Source of the DNA: an uncultured Spirochaetota bacterium
GTDB taxonomy: Bacteria; Spirochaetota; UBA4802; UBA5550
Assembly: GCA_963827275.1 (NCBI GenBank)
Contig: CAWHAA010000008.1
Coordinates: 32,001 to 96,000 of the forward strand
Direction: 5' to 3'
Length of the DNA stretch: 64,000 bases
The position numbers were made by a program. This document shows positions 32,301-51,604 of this stretch, piece by piece. Each line of letters starts with the position of its first letter. Position 1 is the stretch's first letter.

Positions 32301-35300
32301 CAACTGCTGAAAAAACTCCCCGAGAATGAGATTGTAGGATTCAGTTCGAGGATCGGCACCCAAAGCCTGTTAAGCGCCACCACAATGGGAACGCAAAACA
32401 ATATCGCGGTTATCTTTGTTTATTTAAAACCATTCTCTCAGCGGGACCGTACTGCAGATCAGATAATGGCAGCACTGAAAAAAGATATAACACGGGCTGC
32501 GGTCCAATCTCATTCACTTTTTGTAATGAATCTAAGCAGACTAGGGCCACCCATGGGACGCCCCTTTGAGATTAGAATAATTTCTAACGACAACGAACTT
32601 CGAGGAAATAAAGAAAGAGAAATCAGAAAATATTTAAAGACACTACCGGGGATATTTGATATTGAAAATGATGATATCGAGGGGAAAAATGAACTAAATC
32701 TTAAAATCAACCATGATATTCTTTCAAGAACCGGCCTTACTGTCGAGGATGTCCTGACAACTCTTCGTATCGCATTTGACGGAATGATAGTCACTAACCT
32801 GTCAACTGTAGACAAAACTATTGAATTCAGACTGCGTCTGAATGAACGCGCGAGAGCAGATAAGAATTTTATCGACAACCTGCCTATCGCAAACAGCATG
32901 GGAAATATAATAAATCTATCGATGTTTACATCTTTGGTGGAACAGCAATCACGCGCCGGAATTCATCATATAAACGGCATCAGGGCCACAACCATTTTCG
33001 GGAATACCGACCTGAAGAAAATATCCCCCGTTGAGGTAATGAACAAGGTGCGGTCATTATATCCTTCTGATGCAAATGTTGCTATAGAATACTCCGGCCA
33101 ACCTGTTGAAACAAATCAAATTTTTTCAGGGCTTGCCTCAGCCGCTCTGGCCGCCTTTGTCGGCATTTATCTTCTTATTTCGCTTATACTTAATTCTTTC
33201 TCAAAACCTTTGATAATAATGACTTCAATCCCCTTTCTTGTTATCGGGTTTGCTTTTGTTCTGATTACTCATGGCATACCCGCTTCGATGATGGGAGGTA
33301 TTGCTATGGTAGGTCTTATGGGGGTTATTGTTAACAACTCCATTATTATGGCTGATACAATCCGCGGGCTTTCGGGTGATCATCAAATTACTAAAAATAT
33401 TATTATTAAGGGCGCAGTCTCGCGTCTCAGGCCGGTTCTCCTGACTACAATAACAACTGTATTTGGAGTTCTTCCAACAGGTTACGGTATAGGCGGTTCT
33501 GACCCGTTCCTTGCGCATATGTCGCTTGTACTGGCCTACGGTTTGCTTTTTGGCACAGCTATTACACTTTTCATGGTTCCATTATTGTTTACTGCAAGTG
33601 TAGATATTTCCAATAGTGCAGTCAGAATAACTAAAAAATTTAACATTACCTTTCTTTCCAGGTATCTGCCTCCTCTCAGGTAAAGGCCCGGGGGACACAA
33701 TGAGCTTTATGTGAAGCAAGTATGTGAGATCGTCCTGCAACTAATATAAATATATAGGAATCTGTTGCCTCATCAGTACAAGCCCAGGGGACACATGGAG
33801 GGGCTTAATCTAAGAGGAAGTAATTGCTGATAAAAAGCATTCAGTCACATTGACCTGTACTGAATACGGAGCATTGTCCTATATAAATATATAGGAATCT
33901 GTTGCCTCATCAGTACAAGCCCAGGGGACACAAAGCATTTTATATGAAGCTGCTTCCTCTCAAGTGAAGCCGCCTCCAACATAAAAAAGCGCTGGACAGG
34001 AGCTTAAAATTTGTCCCAACAATGTATATTGGCCTTCTCAATCATCCCCGGATCGAATCACTCGATCTGTCTTTCGTGTCAGGGTGTTTCAGCGGCAGCG
34101 CTCCTCTGGCAGTGGAAATAATAAAGAAGTTCGAAGAAAAAACCGGGACCGTCATCTGCGAGGGCTTCGGGATGACCGAGTCATCACCCGTCACCCATAT
34201 CAATCCCTTTGCAAAAGGCAGGACCAAGCCCGGGAGTATCGGTATACCGATTCCCGATGTCGAATGCCGCATCGTGAGCATCGAAGACCAGAGTACCGAT
34301 GTCGAGCCCGGCGAACCCGGCGAGCTCATCATGCGTGGGCCACAGGTCATGAGGGGATACAAGGGGATGAGCGGTGAAACCGAGAATACCATTCGCGACG
34401 GATGGCTGCATACGGGCGATATAGCGCGGATGGACGATGAAGGCTATTTTTACATCGTCGACCGGTTAAAGGACATGATATTGTCCGGAGGGTACAACGT
34501 GTATCCGCGCGACATCGACGAGATACTGTATACGCACCCGAAGGTGCTCGAGGCCTGCTCGATCGGCGTACCGCATTTGAAGCGCGGTGAAGCCATCAAG
34601 GTGTTTGTCGTGCTCAAGCCTGGAGAAGAGGCCACCGTTCAGGAGATAATCGATTTCTGCAAAGACAAGCTCGCGGTGTACAAGCTGCCTGAGGAAGTCG
34701 AATTCAGGAATGACCTCCCGAAATCAACGGTCGGTAAAATCCTCAGGAAAGAGCTCAAGGCCGAAGAGATGAATAAAAGGAAGAATAAGTAGATGAAGGA
34801 TTGCGCAGCTTGCCCGTGCAAGCTGCGCAATGACCGAATGACATTAACCGGTTGTCGACAAGGGACATTTTCCGGTGCCCCCGTTTTTTGACGATTGTAC
34901 TATAATTTATCTTTGACCCACTCCCATGTTTTCTCCCAGACTTCCATGCGGTTGACCTCGTTGAAGTTCTCATGGTAATTGGCGTGGTAGTAGATAACAT
35001 CGACCGGCTGGCGCTTGATCGATTTCAGCGCATTCTCGCTGTGTTCCGGGTCTGCCAGCATGTCCTGGCCGGCGATGATTCCGAGTATGGGTGATGCGTC
35101 CCATTGGGCTATATTGCCGAGCACGAACTTCTGGGCCTTTTCCGATGCGACGGCCAGACCCGCAGTGGCCGTTTTTCCACGCACGCCGCTTTTCTCATCG
35201 GCATGATGGCGCGCCGTGATTTCGGCGTCATGAGTCAGGTGATCGGTAACCGGCTGCGGAGTTACCTCGAACCTGGGGTTCATGAGGGATATGATTTTAG

Positions 35301-50300: not shown

Positions 50301-51604
50301 GTTATCTGATCTAGCTTGTGTTTAATGCCATGCGCATATATCCCATAGTATCGTATCGCTTTGCGGTGCTTATCAGGCAGATAAAAGAGCATTCTTGCCA
50401 TGAATTCGTAAACGTCCAGGGTCATTTCAGAGTAGGTCTTTTCTTTCGTGTTACGGTCAACCCAGCTTTTATATCTGAACGTTATTTTCGCTTTATTATG
50501 GTTTATGCCTGTTATCATGCTGTTGTGGAAGTATCCGGCCGCGAGGTACTCGGCGGTGCGAAATAATACTTCGTTATTTGTGCCGATTACAGGCTGTAGA
50601 TGCACATGAAAGCCGTTTTTATATTTTTCCCTGATTATACGAACTTCTTCTTCGGATAGTATCCCGTTTTTCCCCAATAGGCGAAGTACGGCATTCATCC
50701 ATGAAAAGCGGATTCTTCGGTAGTTCAGGAGCGGTGAGCGGAGTATCTCTCCTGTTAATGTATTCACCAGCTCCCGCGTGCCGATCAGGTGCACATGCGG
50801 ATTGAAGTTCAGGGCATTGCCACACTTGTGCAGGGTGGCGATGCTGCCTGATTGCCATTCCCTGCCGGGATTACCCGTGCTTTTCAGGAGCTCCTTCCAG
50901 TACACGCCGGCCGCCGCGGTGATTAGGTCCTCGCACGGGAAGCGTCTTTCGAAGAGCGCCCGGGTCACCGGCCCGGGCAGGGTGAAGGTGACGTGGAAAT
51001 GAGTCAGGGTCGTGTGCATGACCTCCGACAGGTTCATGGACCAGCCGTACAGCTTTTTCCGGTGGCAGGAGAGGCAGAGACGGGATTTGCAGGTGAATGG
51101 TACCATGAGGACCGTGCCGCACTCAGGGCACACGTGCTTCCGGAACCCGTTTCGGTAGTCTCCGCACGAAAGGAGCTTCAACACCTCGGATATCTTCTCT
51201 TCGGTAAGATCGCCATAGAGGGGCGCAAAGTTTTTCTGATATTGCTCCCTGAATTCATGCCAGTATCGCTGCCATACTCCCTTGTATAGGGACTGCCTGT
51301 CCATCCCGGGCCGGTAGGGCGGCGTGATGTCGCTTGTGCGAAGGTACATACAGGGGGAACGGGCGGGTATATCGAAAGAGTAAAACTATTTTCACACGCG
51401 CCCCCTCCGGGGGGCGGGGGGCATGAAAATCTGGCAGGGCAAGCAAAGGCTACCTTCGTTTATGGGGTAGGCGGCCTCACGCCGCCGGCAGATTTGCCGC
51501 AAACAGAAATATTTCCTTGAAAATTAATCCCCTTTTTATAGATAGTGCATCATGCCCGCGGAAAACCGGGCGGCAAAGAAAGAGGTGCGCCATGCTCACA
51601 GTAA

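Follow-up and report, generated by a model that had tools for sequence, protein, structure and literature searches.

Does one-ended transposition have a share in shaping ordinary chromosomes? Knowledge of the one-ended transposition and the miniature right ends of the IS91 family comes from resistance plasmids and a small number of laboratory systems. We addressed this question at a locus of an uncultured Spirochaetota bacterium, in a window of 64,000 nucleotides (positions 32,001 to 96,000 of contig CAWHAA010000008.1, here C8; positions below are those of the window unless a contig name precedes them). In this locus a 127-bp module, M, which by its position is an oriIS-type end, lies at the joins of imported DNA and accumulates to one side of an insertion sequence (IS). 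The locus suits such a test well, since its transposase gene is apparently intact, its five modules are identical and three of its junctions have donor-like sequences. Solo ori modules are left unannotated by gene callers, and such islands therefore look like unexplained mosaics.

Repeat search, alignment and BLAST agree with the initial annotation that five direct copies of M are 100% identical over 127 bp with common edges, AATATATAGG...GCTTAAAATTT in all five full copies (Table 1). The first copy is real, but it had been given a start at 33885, and one extra shared A moves this to 33886. The array consists of five units over 17.5 kb inside a 21-kb island upstream of alaS. Beyond the five copies noted earlier, the window holds partial, inverted and diverged ones. 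The diverged partial M is also matched by a covariance model (33650-33723, 51.8 bits, cmsearch), and the inverted M next to copy 1 is 82% complementary to the copy at 44380-44455. Copy 3 and the diverged copy M' make up an oriIS-oriIS tandem, in which the outer end of M' meets the inner end of copy 3, edge to edge. The strong variation of G+C content along the array was seen again, ranging from 0.26 to 0.66 in 400-bp windows.

Table 1 Features of the array and its IS element (window positions)
Feature	Positions	Strand	Details
Diverged partial M	33657-33718	+	Left part, model positions 2-63; just past AcrB-family gene end; nhmmer
Left part of M, 48 nt	33748-33795	+	Identical to the five full copies; repeat search, alignment, BLAST
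Inverted diverged M	33798-33884	-	Model positions 1-88; head-to-head with copy 1; repeat search, nhmmer, cmsearch
Solo M copy 1	33886-34012	+	oriIS-type module; repeat search, alignment, BLAST
Segment A	34013-40245		Starts inside acyl-CoA ligase gene
Solo M copy 2	40246-40372	+	Repeat search, alignment, BLAST
Segment B	40373-44239		Opens with last 19 codons of the gene preceding ketosynthase paralogues on C4 and C11
Inverted M remnant	40447-40561		Inside segment B; nhmmer
Ketosynthase	40563-41873		In segment B
SpoIIE-domain protein	41908-44145	-	In segment B
Solo M copy 3	44240-44366	+	Repeat search, alignment, BLAST
M', diverged direct M copy	44375-44488	+	nhmmer; cmsearch 44370-44496, 110.9 bits
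Segment C	44489-48139		30-46% G+C; CHB_HEX_C-domain protein, two unknowns, M23 peptidase
Solo M copy 4	48140-48266	+	Repeat search, alignment, BLAST
Segment D	48267-49863		26-43% G+C; starts inside homologue of a 139-aa ORF
IS91-family element, apparently intact	49864-51421		M copy 5 to terIS-type end
M copy 5	49864-49990	+	OriIS-type end of the IS, tnpA-distal
Spacer between oriIS module and tnpA stop	49991-50116		Also in the genome's IS remnants
tnpA, IS91-family transposase	50117-51349	-	410 aa; HxH and tyrosine motifs kept
terIS-type end	51350-51421		G+C-rich palindrome 51400-51415, then G run

The gene adjoining the array does encode an IS91-family transposase, as had been annotated, with Pfam matches to Y2_Tnp (3.6e-19) and Zn_Tnp_IS91 (1.7e-16) and 154.3 bits against NCBIfam NF033538 (cut-off 125). 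Its motifs H185-V-H187 and R-Y334-Y335-G-I-Y338 are invariant among 10 homologues with 52-100% identity, and the region of H185, H187, Y334, Y335 and Y338 presumably provides the HUH-type histidine pair and the catalytic tyrosines. Judged by its sequence, the transposase looks intact. Homology to other IS copies stops at about 51421, and the two IS copies of the genome are 84% alike from M through this position. Beside the second one, nhmmer recovered the three identical variant copies of M that had been reported there (C8:156629, 158920 and 160265).

M is found about 130-155 bp 3' of tnpA in constant relative orientation, both in the window and at 10 congener loci with tnpA 77-91% alike, and weakly at 4 further loci with tnpA 52-57% alike. 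This conservation at the 10 congener loci upholds the earlier claim that M is an end of an IS91-family element. In this family, terIS has one palindrome and lies upstream of tnpA, while oriIS lies downstream, has two imperfect palindromes in IS91 and IS801, and needs no more than its last 82 bp (PMC13181058). Which end M represents had been called unsettled; with its place 3' of tnpA here and at the 10 congener loci, M is now assigned as the oriIS-type end of the IS.

When 44 distinct M copies were aligned, information dropped to background right outside AAT...TTT. Of the two bases ahead of M, the first is T in 39/44 and the second T or A in 38/44, and the last three bases of M are T in 37/44, 40/44 and 33/44, respectively. 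The inner edge, ...AAAATTT, thereby resembles the T-rich tetranucleotide that precedes the copies, whereas a run of G, and not ATTT, closes the actual terIS. The earlier statement that no GTTC/CTTG target occurs at the outer boundary is right in that the motif differs, yet conserved T-rich bases do precede M. The junction of segment D has to be shifted by one base to follow the T-rich rule. No direct repeats were found flanking M copies. The folding energy of M is unexceptional (z about 0.5) and its palindromes are weak, with no more covariation than in shuffles: folds of the left part average -3.8 kcal/mol per copy vs -2.7 kcal/mol in shuffles, RNAalifold returned no consensus structure, and the 81.6% pairing of the right hairpin was reached by 148/500 shuffles.

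The M family is larger than the 26 places first counted, with 41 BLAST hits and 67 nhmmer hits in the genome. The 67 hits have common edges, and 12 of them continue into an IS while 55 are solo. This excess of solo copies could mean that M is not part of the IS but a repeat or recombination site of the genome (similar to attC or REP), serving as an IS target or as the site of another recombinase. The arrays also look like integron cassette arrays, and four genomes (G006, G021, G032 and G046) have M without a tnpA match. Such a separate repeat is nevertheless very improbable, given the place and orientation of M that are kept 3' of tnpA, weakly even at 52-57%. In addition, the M variant goes together with the IS variant in the two IS copies of the genome, no integron integrase was found in the genome, and no Rfam family matches M. 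Finally, an IS inserting before a resident M would leave solo copies on the terIS side, and the opposite is observed.

The segments between the copies had been described as beginning or ending inside genes, with one of them foreign. Homology to other genomes and contigs shows that they are mutually unrelated and partly foreign, and that they begin inside genes exactly at an M edge. At the start of segment A, only the last 256 aa of the acyl-CoA ligase are present, as noted before (AMP-binding profile positions 267-383 of 384), and homology to full-length genes in other genomes begins at 34013. Segment A also contains an alpha/beta hydrolase, a 603-aa unknown, an AraC-type regulator and a tRNA-Val, which is the second tRNA-Val(CAC) mentioned earlier and is located at 39697-39770. 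Across the junction corresponding to the start of segment B, the paralogues read ...ACTT and then TCAGAAC. The resemblance of the ketosynthase segment to lipid-cluster DNA on C4 was also found, at 80% to C4:92275-93508.

Segments C and D have matches in foreign contigs, which are 93-99% alike and stop exactly at M edges. Positions 46431-48139 of segment C are 98.9% alike to a 10.3-kb contig from another metagenome; the match stops exactly at 48139 and the contig continues beyond. For segment D, the match to a 4.8-kb foreign contig begins at 48267, and homologues of the 139-aa ORF in three other genomes share mutual homology about 460 bp further upstream, without M. Gene fragments adjoin three of the four solo copies, with the other half missing. 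M is bordered by genuine breakpoints on either side. The array cargo carries no signature of resistance, phages or defence. Among 34 inter-M segments in the genome only one has a second copy there, and therefore no unit was seen to have moved.

Only one long-read metagenome assembly gives the segment order, and chimeric joins at the 127-bp repeat could have produced the layout. This assembly contains indel errors: alaS is spread over three frames, and at 51743/51745 a base is absent from the contigs of three runs. Short-read contigs, extending only about 28 nt into M, cannot span it. On the other hand, long reads far exceed a repeat of 127 bp. Contigs from public runs, of which the best-matching one may be the source sample itself, cover the segment-M junctions at 33984-34335 and 43772-44266 without differences, and another of 187 nt spans copy 2 completely and enters segment B by 60 nt. 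Same-direction arrays also recur in congener assemblies. An artefact has hardly any probability left.

With a covariance model, M was found in 15 of the 16 genus genomes, and not absent from ten of them as first reported; five congeners searched in full have 22-104 copies per genome. In the genome studied here, same-strand solo copies within 9 kb of an IS-linked copy occur on its outer side in 10/12 cases and on its inner side in 0/12, and the IS-linked copy is the last one in 10/10 arrays that hold an IS. A hand tally in five congeners gave 16 outer and 2 inner among 22 evaluated. In this genome, solo copies thus accumulate exclusively on the outer side of the IS. This one-sided stacking points to directional and repeatable addition of DNA at one locus. 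IS-less groups of M exist as well, with eight clusters in this genome and a 45-kb array in congener G008.

BLAST of the genome confirmed that the 100% identical copies are confined to this array. No 100% solo copy was found elsewhere in the genome, which would be odd if M moves freely in trans. With the two identical arrays left out, M identity is 0.707 within arrays vs 0.634 between arrays, and 0/2000 permutations reach 0.707. These values suggest that M copies arise locally.

M could instead be a MITE-like miniature that hops into a pre-existing mosaic island, where deletions and recombination between M copies do the rest without any capture. In IS801, miniature fragments of the right end can transpose on their own, and most genomic IS801 fragments have been ascribed to reorganisation and not to one-ended transposition (PMC3189936). 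Singleton solo copies sit in native-G+C DNA, and inverted or truncated copies are present at 33748-33884 and 40447-40561 and also in congener G016. However, a simple insertion keeps both halves of a gene, and three of the four solo copies show one half only. Had deletions made the boundaries, 44 distinct copies would not share exactly the same pair of edges. Random hopping explains neither the one-sided stacking (10 vs 0; 16 vs 2) nor the restriction of 100% copies to this array. We regard hopping without capture as unlikely, though it deserves consideration.

The flanks of the island are 166-482 bp apart in 5/5 congeners, compared with about 22 kb here. The 21-kb island is an insertion, and all of it is absent from the five congeners. 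Close strains for an empty-site comparison were not found: the relatives compared are at least 20% diverged, and scans of metagenome contigs gave 0 loci and one 1.1-kb locus. The absence of the entire 21 kb would fit an array that was built elsewhere and imported whole, whether it travelled as a single long rolling-circle unit covering 33886-51421 or within a larger island. Copy 1 through terIS has the ori...ter form of such a unit, and segments C and D have their close matches in contigs of other organisms. In the left 4 kb of the island, where the GtrA-like and AcrB genes lie, G+C is 40%, and M is missing from the left border. Against import, the same one-sided layout is found at about ten places in the genome and also in congeners, and the exact M sequence was not found in the collection of metagenome contigs. 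Import is quite unlikely in our estimate, and it would alter the place of the events but leave their mechanism unchanged.

We consider stepwise rolling-circle capture at the ori junction, which the initial annotation had proposed, to be the best explanation, with somewhat better than even chances; its steps, their order and the place of capture are our reconstruction. What it builds on was borne out, namely that M is an IS end with fixed edges, that the segments are partly foreign and that stacking is one-sided, but no intermediate was seen. Matching contigs of public runs contained no circle junction or well-supported joint, and no strain with fewer or more units was found.

In stepwise capture, the solo copies would be 'miniature' right-end units that begin at the ori nick junction and stop at an internal T-rich site, and would therefore have an initiation site without a proper terminator. 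Transposase from the adjacent gene would act at the nick junction ahead of the resident oriIS. Units of oriIS plus DNA would be added singly and in the same orientation, always outside the element's own ori end. Two routes are conceivable. First, one-ended rolling-circle transposition may start at a solo M located in other DNA and replicate into the neighbouring DNA until a T-rich pseudo-terminator is reached. Second, cut DNA may be inserted into an oriIS-oriIS tandem such as copy 3/M'.

A more speculative reading, which we hold to be rather doubtful, is that transposase and solo oriIS modules form an integron-like platform for acquiring foreign single-stranded DNA that lacks an ori. An abortive 127-nt product would be pasted before the resident ori, giving a tandem like copy 3/M', and foreign single-stranded DNA cut at T-rich tetranucleotides would then be pasted into the nick junction between the copies. 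If so, DNA could be taken up without carrying any transposon end itself, and the array, lengthening beside the gene of the enzyme, would preserve the captures in the order in which they happened.

How does the locus compare with known systems? It is like IS91, IS801 and IS1294 in having Y2_Tnp and Zn_Tnp_IS91 domains with a score above the NCBI IS91-family cut-off, a G+C-rich palindrome at the end upstream of tnpA, no inverted repeats, and a conserved short motif ahead of the ori end; the downstream end may also have the two imperfect palindromes of the family, which are weak here. In the IS91 family, adjacent DNA is mobilised when termination fails, in 1-14% of events (PMC13181058). The differences are that TnpA is at most 28% identical to plasmid-borne members, that NNTT or NNTA precedes the ori end instead of CTTG/GTTC, and that each genome has dozens of solo ori ends piled on one side of the IS.

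The closest parallel to the solo copies is given by the IS801 miniatures of Pseudomonas syringae pv. phaseolicola, 229, 360 and 679 nt long, which extend from the right end to a tetranucleotide resembling the left end or a target (Bardaji et al. 2011, PMC3189936). They were shown to transpose, making up 26% of IS801 events, and according to the authors might carry accompanying DNA (PMC3189936). Solo M is likewise colinear with the IS's own M and stops at ...ATTT, with TT or TA before the copies. In contrast to the three sizes of IS801, M has one fixed 127-bp form, with 67 hits per genome here and up to 104 in a congener, and forms one-sided same-direction arrays with foreign DNA at both edges, known here from sequence alone.

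In ISCR arrays, repeated or truncated ISCR copies separate unrelated genes. ISCRs are IS91-like rolling-circle elements that reportedly collect neighbouring genes via failed termination (Toleman et al. 2006, cited in PMC5737581). The IS here does not belong to ISCR clade Ia, the clade whose model was used (NF052416, 32.5 bits vs a cut-off of 925). It differs in having a terIS-type end and in its separators, which are neither entire nor broken transposase genes but clean ori modules of 127 bp. Moreover, ISCR arrays adjoin resistance genes, whereas the cargo here has no such signature.

Integrons work alike, as short same-direction sites separate unrelated DNA and the gene for the presumed site-acting enzyme anchors one end of the array. 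The array is not an integron, however, since TIGR02249 gave at best 127 bits against a cut-off of 265, with 6 matches in the genome and none beside any array. The sites here are transposon ends and not attC, and the segments span 1.6-6.2 kb with several genes and fragments on either strand, while cassettes are single promoterless ORFs. Helitrons of eukaryotes are rolling-circle transposons that acquire pieces of genes by running past their end signal, and they terminate at a hairpin close to one end (PMC4778049). Membership was rejected, as the 410-aa protein has only the Y2_Tnp and Zn_Tnp_IS91 domains, with no helicase domain and hence no Rep-helicase fusion; the enzyme here is of the bacterial IS91 type, and capture would be marked by additional ori ends. 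Our literature search found no paper describing same-direction arrays of IS91-type ends. The arrays would be a variant of the known one-ended and miniature behaviour of the IS91 family, set apart by the fixed form, the copy number and the one-sided stacking.

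A repeat search of 30000-54000 returned one repeat family, with five direct copies that are 98-100% alike over 130 nt. By alignment and BLAST these are copies 1-5 of M, the end of an IS91-family element; its 127 bp, which run from AATATATAGG to GCTTAAAATTT, are the same in all five. The five direct copies claimed by the initial annotation were thus confirmed in all three ways and its array is real, although further copies of M beyond its list were also found in the window. The G+C fraction across the array ranges from 0.26 to 0.66 in 400-bp windows, compared with 0.55-0.58 in genome contigs.

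Copies of M and the intact insertion sequence (plain coordinates count along the window; those with C4 or C10 refer to other contigs of the genome)
Feature	Position	Remark
M copies 1-5, starts	33886, 40246, 44240, 48140, 49864	direct
48-nt left part of M	33748-33795	
Diverged partial M copy	33657-33718	
Inverted M copy	33798-33884	head-to-head with copy 1
Inverted M remnant	40447-40561	
M', diverged direct M copy	44375-44488	outer end abuts inner end of copy 3
M copies with 22-23-bp insert	C4:452605-452760, C10:167436-167590, C10:169856-170010	
Intact IS	49864-51421	M, 126-bp spacer, tnpA (-), palindromic end

Head-to-head pairs of M recur, outer end to outer end with 0-23 bp between them, at 33798-34012 and in the congener genome G008 (C7 near 402.5 kb, 1532.6 kb and 1542.3 kb). 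The A+T-rich outer terminus of M is nearly palindromic, which may make a junction usable both ways. A G+C-rich palindrome resembling that of terIS, the end of the element upstream of the transposase gene, lies at 40562-40610, about 20 nt beyond the inverted remnant; it may be what is left of an opposite-strand ter-ori junction. Three copies carry an insert of the type ...TGCTGAGCCTGTCGAAGCA... within M. Several IS variants have a near-identical stretch separating M from the IS spacer; it directly follows M in about seven IS-linked copies (e.g. C1:224885, C2:312150 and C10:106385). The insert may represent a very small motif, mobile or palindromic, in its own right.

The transposase gene, tnpA, is the ORF at 50117-51349 (-), which matches Pfam Y2_Tnp and Zn_Tnp_IS91. 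It scores 154.3 bits against the NCBI 'IS91 family transposase' model (cut-off 125) and falls far below the cut-off of the ISCR clade Ia model. In an alignment with nine homologues (52-84% identity), H185, H187, Y334, Y335 and Y338, which we take to be the catalytic residues, are invariant, as are the zinc-site cysteines. Because identity to the transposases on 2283 plasmid records is at most 28%, the enzyme is placed on a deep branch of the IS91 family. A second IS copy (C8:160294-161879) is 84% alike, with homology from M up to 51421, and the element closes with a G+C-rich palindrome (51400-51415) followed by a G run; together these set the bounds of the IS at 49864 and 51421.

M is part of this IS. 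It lies 130-155 bp past the tnpA stop, with orientation kept, in 10 congener loci, and is weakly detectable in four loci where tnpA is just 52-57% alike. As described in passages of PMC13181058, terIS of the IS91 family is the left end, upstream of the transposase gene(s), with one subterminal palindrome; oriIS is the right end, of which the last 82 bp are enough, contains two imperfect palindromes in IS91 and IS801, and adjoins the target tetranucleotide. Failed termination is given there as one-ended transposition, 1-14% of events. M sits at the 3' side of tnpA and is therefore an oriIS-type end. M has weak palindromes. As a whole it folds unexceptionally, its left part reaches -3.8 kcal/mol compared with -2.7 in shuffles, and the right hairpin, 81.6% paired versus 28-41% in slid controls, does not rise above column shuffles. 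RNAalifold predicted no consensus structure for M in two runs (no pairs), and a column-pair scan gave a single pair with two common pair types. Rfam matches only the tRNA in 30000-54000, so M was not retained as a known RNA. That M is instead a site of another recombinase is unlikely given its link to tnpA; an integron reading was rejected, as no IntI exceeded the cut-off in the genome.

Iterated nhmmer found 67 M matches in the 4.13-Mb genome, and tblastn found one intact tnpA, a broken second copy and five fragments. By the likeness of inner-side DNA to IS interiors, 12 matches are IS-linked and 55 are solo, without an adjoining IS. A covariance model built on 40 copies detects M in 30 of the 101 related genomes (in the genus itself, 15 of 16); tnpA relatives occur in 45 of the 101. 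Full counts of M matches in five congeners are 104, 51, 22, 22 and 55. Among metagenome contigs, no locus matched an exact 43-nt word of M, and a single 1.1-kb contig matched a degenerate word of 29 nt. Of the words sampled from 40400-50100, at most a quarter occur in any one sequencing run.

The edges of M are fixed. Among 44 distinct copies, information content drops to background right outside M on both sides. M starts as AAT-ATATAGGAA, preceded by two bases that are T in 39 and T or A in 38 of the 44, and ends as AAAA-TTT, with T in 37, 40 and 33 of 44. These counts indicate that M ends in a T-rich tetranucleotide of the kind that precedes it, a shared motif ahead of the module and at its end. 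The five identical copies differ solely at the two preceding bases (TA, TT, TT, TT and GA), so the copied unit has its edge at that point. According to passages of PMC3189936, right-end fragments of IS801 (229, 360 and 679 nt) make up 26% of its transposition events and run from the right terminus to a tetranucleotide resembling the left end or the target. Because the edges of M obey this rule, solo M is read, by analogy, as a miniature right-end unit arising from early termination.

Both edges of M are breakpoints. Beside copy 1 lies an ORF for the C-terminal 256 aa of an acyl-CoA ligase, matching positions 267-383 of the 384 in the AMP-binding profile, and DNA homology to full-length acyl-CoA ligase genes of other genomes begins at 34013. 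The 57 bases following copy 2 are the final 19 codons of a gene whose paralogous loci on C4 (94%) and C11 (89%) have different sequence upstream of the joint; there these loci read ...ACTT|TCAGAAC, in agreement with the T-rich rule. Copy 3 is directly followed by M', and an oriIS-oriIS tandem, edge to edge, exists. After copy 4, the following 340 bases are 80-81% alike to two genomes and 195 bases are 79% alike to a third; two of the homologues remain homologous to each other for about 460 bp more upstream, in a 139-aa ORF without M. Their joint, ...GGTTC|AAGCCC, follows the T-rich rule only at a one-base offset.

Contigs of four public runs place breaks at the same edges. A 10.3-kb contig is 98.9% alike to 46431-48139; its match halts at the last base ahead of copy 4, and the contig extends 440 nt more. 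A 4.8-kb contig (93% alike) matches from 48267, the first base past copy 4. Two foreign contigs begin matching at 46431, within an ORF with no M-like sequence there, which may be mere divergence. Contig joints such as 33733>44463, 33933>50054 and 40607>51398 were set aside, having sides of 21-24 nt between look-alike repeats, and 44488>49992 was rejected as a deletion here, being another organism's IS copy of the M' type. The junction at C7:223098 is 83% alike to a C5 paralogue, too diverged to say much. In the empty-site comparison (two singleton M copies, 16 congeners), one congener has 63 bp at the C4:126564 site versus 936 bp including M here, with homology not bounded by the M edges.

Stacking of solo copies is one-sided. 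Within 9 kb on the outer side, beyond the ori end, ten of the genome's 12 IS-linked copies are accompanied by a solo M on the same strand; on the inner side, towards tnpA and terIS, none is. Read in the direction of M, all 10 same-strand arrays with an IS or remnant end in the IS-linked copy; by our arithmetic, the chance of this order is about 6 in 100,000, given array sizes of 2 to 5. In the five congeners, a tally by hand among the matches listed (150 of 254 M rows) gave an outer neighbour for 16 and an inner one for 2 of 22 IS-linked copies; four of 26 IS rows were left out of it because they lay at a contig end (one), had no listed adjacent M (two) or had M on the opposite strand (one). 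The arrays at G012:C84, G008:C7:1.53 Mb and G008:C4 have the same pattern. A copy of M lies within a broken tnpA at G016:C2 (about 643.9 kb), and eight M clusters in the genome studied have no IS. Separately, G008:C7:365800-410800 holds 19 M matches in 45 kb, mostly on one strand, with segments of 0.2-7.9 kb and 34-59% G+C; no transposase remnant was detected in it. Plain MITE insertion with rearrangement is a rival account of the window array, backed by the IS801 authors, who in PMC3189936 ascribe most genomic fragments to reorganisation, but this leaves the missing gene halves, identical edges and one-sided stacking unexplained.

The copies of M are of local origin. Copies 100% identical to those of the window are confined to its array, and three identical variant copies are confined to the second IS's side. 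Excluding these two arrays, identity is 0.707 within arrays and 0.634 between them, with none of 2000 label permutations as high, and copies have diverged (54-95%) in arrays with decayed IS remnants. Thus copies arise within an array, and arrays differ in age. Only one of 34 inter-M segments has other genomic copies, and this one resembles a different mobile element. C8:154846-156628, between two outward-facing arrays, has 96% copies at C4:745483-746824 and C9:16975-18191, and is probably a further insertion sequence that moved in between them.

The island is absent from congeners: its flanks (rplM, recX and a 350-aa gene on the left, alaS from 51593 on the right) are 166-482 bp apart in all five well-assembled congeners versus about 22 kb here. 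The array points away from alaS, which lies on the side of the terIS end. The leftmost 4 kb or so (29700-33700) contain a GtrA-like gene on the minus strand (29828-30322) and, at 40% G+C, a complete gene for an AcrB-family transporter (30573-33683). No M was found at the left border (best match 6.3 bits, E = 1.2), and arrival of this left part is unexplained by M. The cargo is miscellaneous; in terms of phage or defence signatures it offers no more than one weak DUF499 match, a regulator domain and an M23 peptidase. A tRNA-Val(CAC) with about 330 bp after it (39688-40095) is 73-78% alike to tRNA-Val loci of two congeners, so the right end of segment A, between copies 1 and 2, seemingly came from a related genome rather than a distant donor. 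Ready-made import of the array is possible and would alter just the place of the events.

alaS (51593-53805) is split over three reading frames, with ORFs at 51641-52324, 51975-52670 and 52441-53805. Contigs of three public runs have one base fewer than the window at 51743 or 51745, which makes it probable that an indel error in the long-read assembly, and not pseudogene formation, caused one or more of the breaks. An assembly artefact as the source of the array is nevertheless unlikely: segment order comes from this single assembly with its indel errors, but the repeat is 127 bp in a long-read assembly, and every segment-to-M junction is present in contigs of public runs.

The stepwise capture by a rolling-circle element proposed in the initial annotation is partly supported, by the M-IS link, fixed edges, breakpoints and stacking; its individual steps are a matter of inference. 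The transposase would nick ahead of a resident oriIS and add units at that place. By one route, a miniature M would insert into other DNA behind a T-rich tetranucleotide; a later round would start at this solo ori, which lacks terIS, read through the neighbour to a T-rich pseudo-terminator, and the product would be pasted at the junction ahead of a resident M. By the other, a miniature M would be pasted ahead of a resident M, as in copy 3 and M', and DNA cut at T-rich sites would then be pasted between the two. Both routes alike predict one M per segment, two breakpoint edges and outer-side growth. A full IS inserted at such junctions would leave solo copies on the terIS side, which are rare (2 of 22 among the matches listed), and this rarity is unexplained by the model alone.

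Full-text searches brought up papers on IS91 regulation, ISCR contexts, IS801 miniatures and an 11-kb IS91-sdpA circle (PMC5737581), among which there was no description of same-direction arrays of solo oriIS modules. The locus is suited to a direct test: its enzyme gene is intact, its modules are identical and sequences resembling donors are at hand. The T-rich tetranucleotide at the edges of M follows the bounding rule of the IS801 fragments, which, their authors suggest in passages of PMC3189936, might mobilise accompanying DNA.
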